Source: Candidatus Bathyarchaeia archaeon (GTDB lineage: Archaea > Thermoproteota > Bathyarchaeia > TCS64). From it: a stretch of DNA of 64,000 nucleotides. Shown here piece after piece: positions 23,882 to 38,432 of this stretch. The DNA lies in contig JBEKDF010000009.1 in NCBI GenBank assembly GCA_050014495.1, positions 1 through 64,000 on the forward strand, given 5' to 3'. The notes below the pieces were generated by a model. The model worked only from the letters and a program-made list of their open reading frames with translations. It made no database searches and was not told the DNA's origin. Position numbers and translations under genes: made by a program. Every line of letters starts with the position of its first letter. The stretch's first letter is position 1.

Positions 23882-25267
23882 ATGGCCGAGTCCAAACAAT
23901 TCAAAGAGATCACACTTACCCACAGCTCCCGAGGCAGGAAGCTGAGTAGGCCAATCACATTCAGGATCATAATTGCTAGGAGCCCTGGAGAAAAGGCTGT
24001 CCAGGACTACGTGATCGAGTCTTTATCCATAAAAATGCCGAGTCTGATCCCCTTCGTCTTCGAGAATAGCACCGTGGTGAATCGAGCCAAGGATCTTAAA
24101 TTCCACTACATTGGGAGCCCCGCGACACTCTACCAGGACGTATATGGAGTCTATCGATTCAGTAAGTGGATAGGCCAGTCACCTGATGAGCTCTTCAAGG
24201 GATGCCTGAACAGGAAAGGTAAGCCTGATCCATCTAGACTAGACGAGCTCAAGAGACGTCTCGACGACTTCATGTGTGATCTCAAGGCGGGAAATACCGC
24301 TCCGAGTACCGTGGCCAACTACGTGAAGGGAGTAAAAGGCCTCTTCAAGTCGAACGGTGTCCCTCTTGAATTACCTTTCAGGATCAGTCGTAAGAAAGCG
24401 GAGCCGGATCATTCTCCGACCCCTGAGGAGCTTCAGCAAGTTCTTGACATCGCTGCTCCAAGAGAGAGGGCGATCGTGAGCTTCCTAGCTCTAACTGGAG
24501 TCCGGGAGGGAACCCTTGTGAGACTCAAGTATCGACACGTTCAGCAAGATCTCGAGGCCAGAGTTTCACCCATCCACATTCACGTTGAGGTCGATATCAC
24601 AAAGGGCGAGTATGGCGCCTTCGATACCTTCCTGGCCGGTGAGGGTGTCGAGTACCTGAAGGCCTACCTTCAATCCAGGAGGGCAGGAACAGAGAAGATC
24701 CCATCCGAGGAGATCATGCCAGACTCGCCCCTCTTCAGCTGGGCCTCATGCGGAAGGCCTCTCACAGAGTCAAGGATCCACGCCCTGGTGAGTCGCCTAT
24801 ACCTGAGGGCCGGGATCATCTCAAAGGCCGATAAAGGTAGAAGGTACAGGGTCAGGCCTCACAGCCTGAGGAAGTACTTCAGGACCCAGCTCGCAGCTCT
24901 ATCAATCCCCACCGATCACGTTGAGTACATGATGGGCCACGTGATGAGCACCTACAATGACGTTCAGAGCCTGGGTATCGAGAAGCTAAGAAATGAGTAC
25001 GCCACAGCTGGACTCAGCATCAGGCCGAGGACCAGAGCCAGTAAGATCGAGATGGTCAAGTCGATGCTTGAGTCCATAGGGGTGTCACCTGAGGAGATGA
25101 GAGCAGCTCTAGTTAAGCCAAACAGGACCGTGATCGGCCTGGAGGATGGAGAGGCAGTTCAGCTTAAGGCTCTCCAGGGTGTCATGAAGAGAGCTCTCCT
25201 TAAGGAACTTGGTATAAATTCATGGCTAGAGAGTGGTAGCCCGGCGGAGATTCGAACTCCGGTCTAA
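23882..25267 (+). CDS. tyrosine integrase, 3' end reading through att into the tRNA antisense
   Basis: TGVREGTL, HSLRKYF, MMGH..STY. Overlaps 25234..25267. Confidence 0.93.
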   Translation: MAESKQFKEITLTHSSRGRKLSRPITFRIIIARSPGEKAVQDYVIESLSIKMPSLIPFVFENSTVVNRAKDLKFHYIGSPATLYQDVYGVYRFSKWIGQSPDELFKGCLNRKGKPDPSRLDELKRRLDDFMCDLKAGNTAPSTVANYVKGVKGLFKSNGVPLELPFRISRKKAEPDHSPTPEELQQVLDIAAPRERAIVSFLALTGVREGTLVRLKYRHVQQDLEARVSPIHIHVEVDITKGEYGAFDTFLAGEGVEYLKAYLQSRRAGTEKIPSEEIMPDSPLFSWASCGRPLTESRIHALVSRLYLRAGIISKADKGRRYRVRPHSLRKYFRTQLAALSIPTDHVEYMMGHVMSTYNDVQSLGIEKLRNEYATAGLSIRPRTRASKIEMVKSMLESIGVSPEEMRAALVKPNRTVIGLEDGEAVQLKALQGVMKRALLKELGINSWLESGSPAEIRTPV

Positions 25268-25309
25268 GGGTCCAAAGCCCTCCATCCTTGTCCACTAGAC
25301 GACCGGGCT
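25234..25309 (-). tRNA. tRNA-Gln(TTG), CCA encoded, no intron
   Basis: Reverse complement AGCCCGGTCGTCTAGTGGACAAGGATGGAGGGCT-TTG-GACCCTTAGACCGGAGTTCGAATCTCCGCCGGGCTACCA folds as a cloverleaf. Confidence 0.97.
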
Positions 25310-31094: not shown

Positions 31095-31379
31095 GTGATG
31101 TTTGGAATGAGTGCATCGAACTCCGTCGCGAGGGTTTTCTCCCTTCCTAATTGCAAAAAATGTGAGCAGTTAAAGGAGTGGATGAAGGAGTGTCATGTGC
31201 CCTTCGAAGCGAAGTGGTTTGACACGGAGGCACAGACAGAGTTTGTAATGAGAAACATGTTCGGGAACCCACCTATACTCGAGGTGGGGAAGCGATGTGT
31301 GTCGTCGGAGGAGATGTTTCCCGGCGGGGTGCTAAGCGAGGGCATAGTGAGGGATTTGCTGAATGTTAAAGAGGGGTAG
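31095..31379 (+). CDS. glutaredoxin/NrdH-like protein
   Basis: FSLPNCKKC...PPIL. Overlaps the nrdD start. Confidence 0.85.
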   Translation: MMFGMSASNSVARVFSLPNCKKCEQLKEWMKECHVPFEAKWFDTEAQTEFVMRNMFGNPPILEVGKRCVSSEEMFPGGVLSEGIVRDLLNVKEG

Positions 31380-33624
31380 GGATCTTCCCGAGGGGCAGAC
31401 GTTCATAGACCAGTTCTACAAGTCGGAGCGCCTCTACAAGGGAATGCCAATGGTGCGCACCACCGACGGTTACCTTGTAGAGTGGAACAAGGCGAGAATA
31501 GTGGAACAGCTCGTGAGGGAAACTGAGCTCGCGGAAACGATGTTCGGGATAAAACCCATTAGCATTATGAGGGCTGAGAAGCTGAGTCAGGAGGTTGAGA
31601 AGCGTATTAGGCTCATTAAGCCTAAGGTCGTCTCGGGCCCTATGGTTAGGGAAATCACGAATAATGTCCTACTCGAGTGGAGCGAGTCCGAGAACGCGCC
31701 AGAGCTCCAAGTGTACAGGAATATACTGACACGTGTCGGTGTCCCCGTTGTGGATGCATACGAGATCGATACTGGCTCTGGATTTGAGGCGAAGGAGAAC
31801 GCTAACCTCCAGCCTAACCCGGAGACGGTGCATAAGAAGAAGGCGGACAGACTCTCTAAGGAGCAGTACCTGCTGCTAATGGACCCTACGCTGGCGACGG
31901 CTCACCACCAGGGTGACATCCATATACATACACTGGAGTATTTTGGTTCCCGACCCTTCTGCCAGGACTGGGACCTCAGGTACTTCCTCTATTACGGTCT
32001 TATCCCTGATGGTAGTGGGTTCAGGAGCAGTGTGGCTGGTCCAGCAAAGCAACCTGAGGTGGCGATACTCCACAGCGTGAAGGTATTGGCCGCTGGGCAG
32101 ACGAACTTTAGTGGCGGCCAGGGCTTCATGTACTATACGATGTTCCTCGCGCCTTTCCTCAGGGGGCTACCCTACGAGAGGGTGAAGCAGCTCGCCCAGA
32201 TGATGTTCTATGAGTTGACACAGACATATGTGACGCGTGGAGGGCAGCTTGTATTCAGTAATATCCAGTTGCCGATGGGTGTGCCGAAGATCTGGCAGAA
32301 TGTTCCCGTCGTAATGAAGGGACGCGTAGGTCCGGACACATACGGGAGCTACGAGGATGAGGTGCAGACCTTCTTCCGTGCTATCACGGAGGTGGCACTT
32401 GAGGGGGACTACTGGGGGAAACCCTTCAACTTCCCGAAGAACGAGAACTATGTCTCACCCGAGTTCTTCAAGCCAGAGTACGATGACCTCTGGATGCTCG
32501 TCCACGAGTCTGTGAGCAAGTTTGGGGCACCCTACTTCGACAACATGCTTCCAACATACCGTGGCTACGGTAACGGCATAAGCTGCTACCAATGCTGCGC
32601 TTACCAATTCGCGAACACGCCAGAGACTGACCCCAAGTTCAATGAGAAGCTATACTTTGAGGGTGGTCAGCATTTCAGCATGGGCGGATGGCAGGTCGTG
32701 AGCCTAAACATGCCTAGGCTGGCCTACCGCGCCAACGGTGACTACGATAAGCTTCTGGAAGCGGCGCAGGAGAACATGCGGATGGCCGTAGACGTCTTCA
32801 AGACGAAGCAGCACTGGATGAAAAAGTCCCTCGCCAATAATATGGTGCCATTCGCGACACAGACACCCAGAGATCCACACACGGGTGAGCTGGGGCCGCC
32901 AGCCGTTGACTTCTCCGAGCTCGTGAATGTCATAGGCGTCGTGGGAGTCAACGAAATGGTTCAGCACTTCACGGGTAAGCAGCTCCATGAGGACCCGGAC
33001 TCTGTGCGCCTCGCTATACGGCTCCTGCTCGACATGGAGAAGTATAGGAAGGGACTCGAGATGAGGAACGGGTTCAAGATAATGTTGGCGCGTACACCAG
33101 CTGAATCGACAGCACAAACCTTCGCTATCAGTGACCTCGTCTCTCCCACCTACAAGAAGTACGCCATCAACACAGTTAAGGGAGACCTGGAAGGGGCAGC
33201 AGCGCTGGTGAAGGGAAAGAGAGACCTCCCAGTATACTACAGCAATGGTACACACACCTATGTAGGGGCGAAAATACCCCTGGGGACGAAGATCGACATC
33301 GAGCATAAATTCTTCCCAATATTAAGTGGCGGGAACATCTTCCACGCCTGGCTCGGCGAGGCGTGCAGCGATCCGGAGGCACTCTACAAGCTGACTCAGC
33401 GCATCTGCAGGAACAGCCAGATCGGATACTTCAGCTACACAAAGGACTTGACGGTGTGTAGTAAGTGTGCTAGCACGTCGCCGGGAATGCTGAAGATGTG
33501 TCCATCATGTGGTTCCGAGAACGTGCGCTGGTGGAGTAGAATCACCGGCTACTACACGGATGTGACTGGGTGGAACGAGGGCAAGCGCCAGGAACTCATG
33601 GACCGCTACCGCGTCACCATCTAA
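31363..33624 (+). CDS. nrdD: anaerobic (class III) ribonucleoside-triphosphate reductase
   Basis: ATP-cone-like N-terminus, KENAN, QCC, TPAES, YYSNG, CxxC..CxxC, RITGY glycyl-radical loop. Confidence 0.96.
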   Translation: MLKRGRDLPEGQTFIDQFYKSERLYKGMPMVRTTDGYLVEWNKARIVEQLVRETELAETMFGIKPISIMRAEKLSQEVEKRIRLIKPKVVSGPMVREITNNVLLEWSESENAPELQVYRNILTRVGVPVVDAYEIDTGSGFEAKENANLQPNPETVHKKKADRLSKEQYLLLMDPTLATAHHQGDIHIHTLEYFGSRPFCQDWDLRYFLYYGLIPDGSGFRSSVAGPAKQPEVAILHSVKVLAAGQTNFSGGQGFMYYTMFLAPFLRGLPYERVKQLAQMMFYELTQTYVTRGGQLVFSNIQLPMGVPKIWQNVPVVMKGRVGPDTYGSYEDEVQTFFRAITEVALEGDYWGKPFNFPKNENYVSPEFFKPEYDDLWMLVHESVSKFGAPYFDNMLPTYRGYGNGISCYQCCAYQFANTPETDPKFNEKLYFEGGQHFSMGGWQVVSLNMPRLAYRANGDYDKLLEAAQENMRMAVDVFKTKQHWMKKSLANNMVPFATQTPRDPHTGELGPPAVDFSELVNVIGVVGVNEMVQHFTGKQLHEDPDSVRLAIRLLLDMEKYRKGLEMRNGFKIMLARTPAESTAQTFAISDLVSPTYKKYAINTVKGDLEGAAALVKGKRDLPVYYSNGTHTYVGAKIPLGTKIDIEHKFFPILSGGNIFHAWLGEACSDPEALYKLTQRICRNSQIGYFSYTKDLTVCSKCASTSPGMLKMCPSCGSENVRWWSRITGYYTDVTGWNEGKRQELMDRYRVTI

Positions 33625-35527: not shown

Positions 35528-36133
35528 ATGGCCACATCGGAGCTAACACTGAAATACTTTTTTTTCTATATAGCCTCCTTTGTAGTTATACTCCTTGGCT
35601 TCTACTTGGTCCCCTCCGGGTACATTGAGGCTCTGACTGCAGAGACATCGGCATTGGCACTAGCTTTGTTCGGACACGTTGTTAGTTGGGGGCAATTTGA
35701 AGGTCAAACAACCCTCACACTAATCGGACAAAATGTTGTCACCGTCTCAATCGTGCGTGAGTGTACGGCATTGAACGTGCTCGGTGTTATGGTGGGGCTA
35801 ATACTCCCCCTCAGGACGAGTTGGATCAAACGACTCTCTGGAGTCGCCCTTTCCGGTGTAGTCCTCTTTGTACTAAATATACCGAGAATAGCCCTTACCG
35901 TCTACCTCACCGCTTACGATACATGGCCTTTCACCCTGATTGCGGGACGAAGCCTTGAAACCTATCATTACCCAATAAGCTTCGCTTTTGGTGTAATTGG
36001 CGTCGCTTTGACTATCCTAATGGTTGTTAAATGGACTACGCCGGAGTTGGCTGAAACTCTGCTTGGAATTGTTGATAAAGTCCTTGGACTTGTTAAGTCG
36101 CTCATTGGCCTAGTTTCTCAAGACTCAACTTGA
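35528..36133 (+). CDS. exosortase/archaeosortase family membrane protease
   Basis: Multi-pass hydrophobic protein with IVRECTA (Cys), LNIPRI (Arg), YHY (His). Confidence 0.85.
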   Translation: MATSELTLKYFFFYIASFVVILLGFYLVPSGYIEALTAETSALALALFGHVVSWGQFEGQTTLTLIGQNVVTVSIVRECTALNVLGVMVGLILPLRTSWIKRLSGVALSGVVLFVLNIPRIALTVYLTAYDTWPFTLIAGRSLETYHYPISFAFGVIGVALTILMVVKWTTPELAETLLGIVDKVLGLVKSLIGLVSQDST

Positions 36134-36395: not shown

Positions 36396-36722
36396 TTACT
36401 CTTCTTCCTTCTTCTTCTTAACGGGCTTCTTTGCCTCGACTTCCTCATCCTTACGGATGCTTATGGCGATTGTGGAGACGTTCCTCTTCCCGCCGTCCTG
36501 CCCCTCGAGCTCCTCGGTTCCGATCTCTATCTCCGGCTTGCTCAACCCCGCAATGAAGCGGTTTCTGCAGACCTCAGTTACGTCAACTGCCGTACTTATC
36601 GCCTGACCTCTCGCCTTGAGTACTACGCCGTCCGCTCCCTTCTGGTTGAAGGCTGTCAGAACCGCCATTACGTAGGTCATTACAGGTTTACTGCCGATGT
36701 AGATTATGCTGTCCTCTGTCAT
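36396..36722 (-). CDS. albA: DNA/RNA-binding protein Alba
   Basis: IYIGSKPVMTYV, LKARGQAISTAVDV, RNVSTIAI. Confidence 0.96.
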   Translation of the reverse strand: MTEDSIIYIGSKPVMTYVMAVLTAFNQKGADGVVLKARGQAISTAVDVTEVCRNRFIAGLSKPEIEIGTEELEGQDGGKRNVSTIAISIRKDEEVEAKKPVKKKKEEE

Positions 36723-36791: not shown

Positions 36792-37289
36792 TTAATCTAT
36801 GCTGAGTAGCTGGTCGAGCAGAAGATGGTCGTGGGAAGCTGGACTCCTCCAACCCTCCTTATAATTAAAATCATACTCCCTTGTATAATCACGAACGAAG
36901 CATATCGTCGGATCGCCCTTCACACTACCCCTCTTAAAATCCACCTCATAATCATTCATCAGGTCGCATACCTCCCACTGATCCCTAAACATCGAATCGG
37001 AGACAACAAGAGGGATCTTTGAGTAACCTGAGGCGTTCAGCACTCGCCTCCTCCTCTTACCATATTGATAAAGGTCTTCGCCACTCCTAATAGAGATGGG
37101 GTGATGCTCCCAAAACACCTTGCCCAGAGGGAAAAAGTCGAAATTATATCTCCCGATTTGGTATTCATGGTTCATCTCTTTTGGGGTTAAGCCCAGCCAC
37201 TGCAGATACCTGAAACACTGGACCTCCTGATAGCTCACGAACCTTTCCCCCCAGATAACGTAACCAGTGTCGTCTCTGAGTATTTTCAT
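36792..37289 (-). CDS. hypothetical protein, possible Vsr/DUF559-like endonuclease fold
   Basis: SYQE...L...G...HEYQIGRYNFDF...FWEH spacing. Confidence 0.5.
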   Translation of the reverse strand: MKILRDDTGYVIWGERFVSYQEVQCFRYLQWLGLTPKEMNHEYQIGRYNFDFFPLGKVFWEHHPISIRSGEDLYQYGKRRRRVLNASGYSKIPLVVSDSMFRDQWEVCDLMNDYEVDFKRGSVKGDPTICFVRDYTREYDFNYKEGWRSPASHDHLLLDQLLSID

Positions 37290-37654
37290 ATGATCACCAC
37301 CGAAAGTATTTCGGAGGCGCGAGGAGCGAGGAGAATAGTGTGTATGAAGAGGTACTGGGCGTTCTCGCTCAGCTTCAGGGTGGTATATCCTCCCGCCTTA
37401 AACAGATCTAGGGATCATTGGAGATAACATTTACCTATTCTCGGAAAGGCTGTTATTGTGAAAAAAACTAATAAAGAAATTCGGTGGCTTCGTAATAACT
37501 TTAAATGGAGTGTATAAACTGGATATTGTTTAGATATAAGGAGACGTTCTTGATTAGTATGTGTCAATTATAAGGGATAGAACTTAGGCACAGCATAATA
37601 CTTGTCACAGGGGTGCATCATAAGTCTAAATACTTTACACGCAGATGTTAACTC

Positions 37655-37786
37655 TGCCCAAGCAACAGCGACCGGGGATCGAAAAGGCGTGAAGAATCCC
37701 GGAGCTGACTCGGAACGGTGGGCCTAAAGGCTCTAGGGGCTTAGGCTTCAAGAGACCTCACCGTGAAGAGGAGAAATGCTTGGGCA
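37655..37786 (+). ncRNA. candidate structured small RNA (~130 nt), family unknown
   Basis: 10-bp terminal stem TGCCCAAGCA/TGCTTGGGCA enclosing two hairpin arms. GC-rich in an AT-rich gap, TATA-like upstream, pyrimidine-rich downstream. Confidence 0.6.
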
Positions 37787-37979
37787 CCTTATTTCTTCGA
37801 AAATCATCTCACTGAAAGTATCTACACTGTGTCGTCCTCAGCACTGACGTAAACATGACTTGCTTCTTCGCTAATTGACGAAAATCCATCCTTTACACAT
37901 GTGATACGAAGACAATAAGAGAGTACAAGGTTATGCGTCACTAGTAATCGTTAAAGCCAGTATATCCACCCTTAGACCC

Positions 37980-38432
37980 ATGTCGATTGAAGCAAAGTTA
38001 AAGAAGCTAGGACTCGAGCTACCCTCCCCTCCCAACTACAAGGGTAACTACATCGGTGCTAAGTGGGCTAATAACATAGCATTCAGTTGCGGACAGGGTC
38101 CATTCGATAAGACGAAGAGAGGCATGGTGGGTAAGGAGCTCACTCTCGATGAGGGCTACAAGGCAGCCCAGGAGGTTGGCCTCAACTGCCTCTCACAATT
38201 AAAAAGGCAGCTCGGGAGCCTCGATAGGATCAAGCAGATCCTCCAAGTTATTGGCTTTGTCAATAGCGCTGACGGATTTATGGATCAGCCAAAAGTTCTT
38301 AATGGCTTCACAGATCTTCTCGTGAATCTTTACGGTGATCCCGAGGGGAAGCCAGCGAGAGCAGCGATCCCACTCCATCACCCTGGGTGGGTTGCAGTCG
38401 AGGCGTGGATGGTTGTTGAGCTCAAGGAGTAG
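37980..38432 (+). CDS. RidA/YjgF-family protein
   Basis: LKKLGLELP..GNY, CGQGP, GFVNS..F.DQPKVLNG, ARAA. Confidence 0.9.
   Translation: MSIEAKLKKLGLELPSPPNYKGNYIGAKWANNIAFSCGQGPFDKTKRGMVGKELTLDEGYKAAQEVGLNCLSQLKRQLGSLDRIKQILQVIGFVNSADGFMDQPKVLNGFTDLLVNLYGDPEGKPARAAIPLHHPGWVAVEAWMVVELKE

Follow-up and report, generated by a model that had tools for sequence, protein, structure and literature searches.

A 132-nt element at positions 37655-37786 of the 64,000-nt stretch of Bathyarchaeia DNA analysed here (the window) raises the question of whether it is an RNA gene and, if so, how its product acts. The element lies between a divergent 165-aa gene (36792-37289, minus strand) and a RidA/YjgF gene (37980-38432), near the gene for Alba (36396-36722, minus strand), and its minimum free energy of -60.1 kcal/mol compares with -41.5 ± 3.5 kcal/mol for shuffled sequences (z -5.29, equalled by 0/200 shuffles). 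Further upstream, a weakly supported exosortase-like membrane protein (35528-36133, plus strand) and a 753-aa protein, which we take to resemble anaerobic ribonucleotide reductase (31363-33624, plus strand), are encoded. The original prediction of a three-way-junction RNA was built on a closing stem (P1, 37655-37664/37777-37786, 100% complementary), two arms, two GTGAAGA strings (37689-37695 and 37763-37769), TCTAAATA upstream of the RNA (37625-37632) and a pyrimidine tract beginning at 37787, all of which are present in the sequence. The element is a real RNA gene with a conserved pseudoknotted fold, several copies per genome and a common control sequence (here class I), and its product probably acts by binding a protein and not as a guide or coding RNA.

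To our knowledge, few structured archaeal RNAs have been described beyond rRNA, tRNA, SRP and RNase P RNA, guide RNAs and CRISPR. Rfam 15 gave no match at E≤10 for the region 37300-38000 and, for six paralogue loci, just two sub-threshold matches attributable to chance. The sole Rfam match of the window was a tRNA-Gln(UUG) gene elsewhere (25234-25309, minus strand), in agreement with the earlier judgement that the element is not a tRNA. Divergent 5S, SRP or RNase P RNA, discounted in the original prediction as well, was rejected since each of the three was found elsewhere in the host genome and in 4/4 relatives. A tRNA mimic was rejected because no CCA is encoded and the end of P1 carries no G3-U70-type pair, and a Y RNA because Ro60/TROVE was found in 0/5 genomes (three of them RNA-bearing), the control search being positive in 2/14.

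Homologues form a conserved family. BLAST returned full-length matches in 11 of the 17 other genomes of the genus, and a first covariance model found matches in 46 of the 79 genomes of the order. The second model, trained on 65 of the 81 first-model matches, gave 136 matches (six of them partial) in 51/79 genomes, one to six per genome, distributed over five genera of one family: g1 (16/17 genomes), g8 (28/32), g5 (4/5), g6 (1/1) and g9 (1/1). Class I was not found with this model in the 14 genomes of seven sister genera (0/14) or in the other families of the order (0/8); the covariance searches were strictly filtered and limited in the number of candidates scored, and such negatives therefore mean 'not found' and not 'absent'. 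Samples at class level (26/151 genomes matching, all within the same family) and phylum level (1/151, the host genome itself) added nothing. To look for spread to bacteria and viruses, 91 of the 123 loci matching a pattern were scored again, the 32 titled Bathyarchaeia being left aside; among the matches listed, at least 17 passed (15 untitled, one 'uncultured archaeon' and one titled bacterial bin, L262, which is probably mis-binned), and 0/3 viral loci did so.

The fold is supported by covariation. In a MAFFT alignment of 65 sequences 89.4% of cells were paired and 31/44 pairs were compensatory, slid controls reaching at most 41.4% paired (the shuffle control of this test ignores kinship), and the strongest covarying column pairs were the stem pairs. 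G-U outnumbered A-C by 128 to 16 (G-U 68 without an invariant wobble), which places the RNA on the plus strand. The window copy, a short form of 131-132 nt, extends over 37656-37786 (plus strand), with G37656 as the likely start and the 3′-end at or near 37785-37786. P1 is paired in 99.1% of cells, with 6/10 pairs changed on both sides. Arm 1 (37666-37708) consists of stems P2 and P3 and the 13-nt loop L3 (37681-37693), and arm 2 (37709-37770) of P4 (37709-37711/37768-37770, 3/3 pairs compensatory), P5 (96.7% paired, 5/6 pairs compensatory), P6 and an apical stem.

The originally predicted three-way junction is accordingly upheld by covariation; missing from that prediction were a pseudoknot and also the paralogues and their common operator. 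Five pairs connect loop L3 (37684-37688) with a bulge after P5 (37722-37726), paired in 98.1% of cells, with 3/5 pairs compensatory and 4/5 formed in the window copy. Among 95 distinct metagenome matches, obtained by a search pattern that included the bulge and excluded the loop, the loop pentamer complements the bulge in 94 (63/63 with GCUUC and 31/32 with GCUGC). An inner GCCTAA/TTAGGC stem had been proposed instead; it is pairable on paper, but in the homologues GCCU pairs with the arm-1 loop and UUAG forms the tetraloop of a near-invariant GGC-UUAG-GCU hairpin (37738-37747), the proposed protein-binding site.

At the junction, G37707 and A37708 of strand J2/3 (37706-37708) would stand opposite A37772 and G37771, respectively, as tandem G.A pairs. 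The two columns hold G in 52 and A in 65 of the 65 sequences, the facing columns R in 65 and A in 61, which agrees with the tandem of G1b.A1n and A2b.(G/A)2n beside the NC helix that defines a k-junction in excerpts of PMC4005666 and PMC5061560. Judged by sequence, we infer a k-junction with P1 as the third helix (P1 = T, P2 = C, P4 = NC), for which the topology is suitable on paper, and class I is likely a further natural example. Conserved G.A candidates are found at this junction and not at the GTGAAGA motifs, for which K-loop-like structure had been suggested.

It was from these two motifs that binding by L7Ae had been suggested, which would make the RNA a guide of box C/D or H/ACA type. 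The archaeal host and the conserved G.A-rich junction strands (GGA facing GAA) speak for such a guide, which we nevertheless regard as highly improbable: GTGAAGA varies within the genus at both sites, the first being part of the pseudoknot loop and the second of a variable internal loop, a conserved box D partner is absent, and the string CTGA at 37705-37708 is not itself conserved, so that box C/D was rejected. H/ACA was rejected as well, since the ACA near the 3′-end is paired in P1 and covaries (ACG in about a third) and the apical loop is a UNNG tetraloop. In an excerpt of PMC10573300, moreover, L7Ae failed to fold the k-junctions tested. Class I contains no conserved unpaired stretch of guide length, and no reading frame is common to the homologues; letter-for-letter conservation is limited to the ends, the purines of the junction, the core of the pseudoknot and the one hairpin, whose distance from the core varies. 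This confined conservation, together with the lack of guide and reading frame, fits a protein-binding RNA.

Independent transcription, claimed in the original prediction, is borne out by a conserved promoter and trailer and by an RNA-seq contig restricted to the element. The TATA-like box (37627-37632) lies at -29 to -24 from G37656, and in 93 distinct promoters (of 131 upstream regions) the TATA is centred 26 nt upstream of the first G, with further conserved positions at -34, -39/-40 and -53/-54. Upstream of BRE/TATA there is a proximal TTG...CA dyad (37602-37617, -54 to -40), and the pattern TTG-N9-12-SAA occurred in 40/93 promoters versus 0, 3 and 3 in the three windows used as controls. 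The pyrimidine-rich, terminator-like trailer (37787-37803) encodes no CCA and is conserved in the paralogues; comparable C/T trailers follow the 5S, SRP and RNase P RNA genes of the host genome, the tRNA genes of which mostly encode CCA. In a groundwater metatranscriptome, one 165-nt contig from a relative (ca. 95% identity) covers 37666-37786 only, out of 2.3 kb, and carries at each end 22 unmatched letters that we presume to be library adapters. This expression evidence is one contig from one run, which might derive from a single molecule copied repeatedly, or from DNA, and RNA ends and strand are not proven by contigs; likewise, stretches of the 2.3 kb without RNA-seq cover do not imply silence.

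Start of the contig at the junction (37666), conserved purines flanking the pseudoknot and the resemblance of the junction to the TPP k-junction, with P1 as the third helix, would suit a protein-free orphan aptamer or ribozyme, in which the two arms would be held parallel, as in the TPP riboswitch, and create a pocket at the pseudoknot. We find this unlikely, as there is no expression platform, both arms have freely varying internal loops, Rfam gave no riboswitch or ribozyme match, and short 5′ losses like that of the contig are common in cDNA libraries. The orientation of downstream genes is random: of 137 copies, 67 are followed by a gene on the same strand and 62 by one on the opposite strand, and the functions of 129 scanned neighbours are unrelated. 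Both points argue against class I being a riboswitch leader, and a cis riboswitch was rejected because class I does not consistently lie in leaders of same-strand genes.

The host genome contains four class I copies, on contigs C9 (the window copy, 132 nt), C11 (142 nt), C24 (167 nt) and C17 (168 nt). Longer forms of 165-170 and 200-208 nt retain the core and carry an additional arm, inserted between the 3′ strand of P5 and that of P4. In the extra arm of the 200-208-nt forms (L153:2501-2715, L151, L165, L157, L160, L167, L172) a GUGACGU internal loop is conserved and the cap is GNRA-like, and two of these forms have the tRNA-editing gene AlaX directly downstream. In a quick tree of modest support, the copies cluster mostly by genus, indicating genus-level expansions; decayed and truncated copies were also found, and the paralogues look like a set under birth and death. 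The window copy retains its orthologous position across the genus. In genome G005 its orthologue (L043:2302-2437) is an A/T-rich remnant in which the promoter boxes persist, and the HTH-zinc module described below is lost from the same genome.

Varying copy number and context, along with these expansions, could also be read as marks of a selfish, non-autonomous element of MITE or SINE type with P1 as terminal inverted repeat, the more so as a dispersed 28-bp repeat is located <500 nt from 8/137 copies and one copy follows an integrase gene. This reading is very unlikely and largely refuted: promoter and operator are located outside the stem and accompany it, the covariation is strand-specific, reverse transcriptase was found in 0/3 RNA-bearing genomes tested, and the window copy keeps its position and has no target-site duplication. 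The element is thus not a MITE, an outcome that the original prediction had named as one that would undo it. The 28-bp motif itself occurs in 180 copies in the host genome versus 0 in a base-shuffled genome (e.g. contigs C72, C74, C75, C84, C86), mostly in tandem arrays at intervals of about 600 bp, and each immediately before similar ATG starts, in the manner of a gene-cassette array or of a large family of paralogues with one promoter. Two such motifs flank the C24 RNA copy, none was on the contig of the window among the matches listed, and nothing relevant was found in the literature.

The divergent 165-aa gene was rejected as a partner of the RNA: 18/19 further loci (17 from g8 or g1 relatives) have no adjacent RNA, and the 19th has a decayed copy. 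The gene is present in 32/79 genomes of the order and confined to g1 and g8. Its product had no Pfam match and is PD-(D/E)xK/DUF559-like by motif, which is a lead only, with Atlas leads at 0.89; QE..C, DFFP and WEHHP are invariant. Atlas neighbours of this protein agree with a Bathyarchaeia host. In g1, the gene has an upstream stretch of about 115 nt with conserved blocks (37290-37405 in the window), and an operator-like dyad precedes 6/18 other copies.

A further gene, AlaX, bears on whether class I is a fixed subunit of a lineage-specific ribonucleoprotein, with a role like that of Y RNA, vault RNA or SRP RNA, i.e. a scaffold with interchangeable paralogues and not a titrating RNA. Closed ends, a compact tertiary fold and an extra arm that is optional without loss of the core are features expected of such a subunit, and a copy is retained ≤6 kb upstream of AlaX in 33 of the 45 genomes carrying both. 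AlaX is, however, near-universal in the order (72/79 genomes), and the link may therefore be old synteny; in 20 AlaX-upstream loci without a known copy no homologue was found, the best match scoring 11.5 bits and falling inside coding sequence. The absence of Ro60/TROVE from the genomes searched, the separate presence of SRP, RNase P and 5S RNA, the sister genera in which class I was not found and the decayed and truncated copies likewise count against a fixed subunit, which we consider rather unlikely.

Upstream conservation of class I genes extends over about 160 bp and contains a second dyad, the distal operator, with the consensus TGTCTCA-N6-TGAGACRTTMTTAAC...CAAAA. In the window copy (37526-37570) the right half is kept and the left half worn; with an RNA-trained matrix this operator scored 21.1, second best in the genome, and with matrices trained on the promoters of the HTH-zinc gene only -2.4 and -9.9. 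When the matrix was trained without host loci, the top five sites of the 3.1-Mb host genome (scores 29-44, the next being 24) were those of the four RNA genes and one at C29:6994. The latter precedes a structured leader and a single-copy gene of about 110 aa (the HTH-zinc gene, C29:6457-6786), followed by CBS and Mut7-C genes. In reverse, a matrix from 17 HTH-gene promoters gave scores above 5 for 71/128 RNA promoters, each time at -135 to -138, and for 0/128 control stretches. The core operator was found in 73/102 short forms and 2/29 long forms. A strict operator pattern had no match in five RNA-negative genomes, and a shorter pattern gave eight sites, two of them real. An operator-like site was also seen at C35:9624 (plus strand) of the host genome, flanked by gatE and a small conserved gene; an RNA copy is located there in genome G004, and none in the host genome.

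The HTH-zinc protein combines a three-helix domain at the N-terminus with a four-cysteine ribbon at the C-terminus. Among proteins of solved structure, those matching its sequence best were the DNA-binding domain of GcrA (E 2e-4) and Myb (E 6e-4); Foldseek gave no match at E≤0.001, the agreement with GcrA and Myb being below significance. The gene is present in 65/79 genomes of the order, and outside it weak partial matches were found in 5/251 sampled genomes. The protein was initially favoured as the regulator binding the operator, in line with a best operator score whose median was 23.3 for the 43 genomes carrying the gene and 13.4 for the eight without a match to it, where kin are not independent. 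This candidate was weakened by genome G021, a single contig with no match to the HTH-zinc profile, which retains two class I RNAs, with low-scoring operators, and a gene of a second RNA class (class II) with a full operator (30.3). The HTH-zinc protein is therefore not required for either operator or RNAs, and the persistence of both RNA classes in G021 also argues against it as their sole hairpin-binding partner. Genomes G026 and G039 have the gene without the operator, and in G001 and G005 gene, leader and operator were lost en bloc while class I copies remain.

The leader of the HTH-zinc gene is a branched RNA of 138-257 nt with a GUAGY...RCUAC closing stem and a GGG-UNNG-CCU hairpin (in the host genome at C29:6790-6994, minus strand, L347 and L348). 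Further loci with RNAs of this second class, leader or stand-alone, are L546-L555 and L575. Stand-alone class II genes of about 220 nt occur in genera g2, g3, g5, g6, g7, g11 and g12, several of them without class I; the operator was found in 11/11 scored, and in 7/8 loci printed the divergent gene is, as we take it, rps3Ae. Class II had no Rfam match. Neither class II RNA nor leader was accepted as a class I homologue, since the second class I model found none in 26 leader loci. Common to both sets is the apical motif of GGC-UNNG-GCU type, GG(S)UNNG(S')CU, present in 126/137 class I sequences and 22/30 HTH leaders versus 1/30 reverse strands and about 1% of shuffles, the motif having been defined after both RNA sets were seen and the sequences being kin. 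The hairpin is invariant in 19 aligned class II sequences that were selected for having it; the leader of the host genome itself is without the exact motif, which is present in just 2/9 further HTH leaders. As UNNG tetraloops are common stable caps, the common hairpin may reflect folding and not recognition.

In view of the paralogues, their common operator and the hairpin in an mRNA leader, we tentatively prefer among the readings of function, as quite possible, a stand-alone, stable RNA that acts in trans on a protein in a decoy or titration role like that of CsrB and RsmZ. The k-junction-like core and the pseudoknot would provide a compact, nuclease-resistant fold displaying the hairpin, which one host protein would recognise in class I, class II and the mRNA leader alike. 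With the operator on, free RNAs would soak up or scaffold this protein, and its hold on the leader would be relieved. Antisense action on the leader was rejected, as class I complementarity to the own leader is no greater than to foreign ones (6.98 vs 7.18 nt). The wider proposal of a small-RNA regulon, in which the two unrelated RNA classes and the leader of the GcrA/Myb-like transcription-factor gene share one dedicated promoter type of ~160 bp and compete for a single protein that binds the hairpin, is more doubtful. If true, it would mean that archaea have a post-transcriptional circuit of Csr/Rsm kind and a class of promoters kept mainly for small-RNA genes.

Both the class I family and the two-class regulon appear to be undescribed: no description of class I was found in the open-access literature or Rfam, while supplements could list such an RNA. 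Class I represents a well-supported new fold with more than 130 genomic examples, and its common promoter led to a second new RNA class. Operator, hairpin and pseudoknot are short and defined, which makes the questions of binder and inducer tractable in vitro despite the uncultured host.

In comparison with known systems, class I resembles the Y RNAs in its length of 100-200 nt, closed terminal stem and paralogues, but differs in having neither a bulged Ro site in P1 nor a tRNA-like domain, in encoding no CCA, and in that TROVE protein was found in none of the five genomes searched. Like the orphan structured RNA motifs of archaea and bacteria, for example the 224 motifs of PMC5737381, class I is intergenic and covarying; unlike them it stands outside Rfam 15, is multicopy and shares its operator with a second RNA class. 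With the TPP riboswitch and DUF-3268 k-junctions, as described in excerpts of PMC4005666 and PMC10573300, it has in common a tandem G.A three-way junction with P1 as the third helix and arms that meet distally. It differs from both in being stand-alone, in the Watson-Crick pseudoknot between the arms and in a second G.A-rich face on P1, and from the TPP riboswitch also in lacking the TPP consensus, in keeping with the Rfam result. CsrB/CsrC and RsmX/Y/Z are paralogous stand-alone decoy RNAs with a common upstream activating element and many GGA loops. Class I shares with them the stand-alone paralogues, a control element common to these and a hairpin that is also found in an mRNA leader, whereas each class I RNA has a single UNNG hairpin in place of repeated GGA hairpins, is pseudoknotted, is preceded by an archaeal promoter and matches no Rfam family. 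The decoy logic, if upheld, would thus resemble a known bacterial kind, and the new part may be the family and its architecture.
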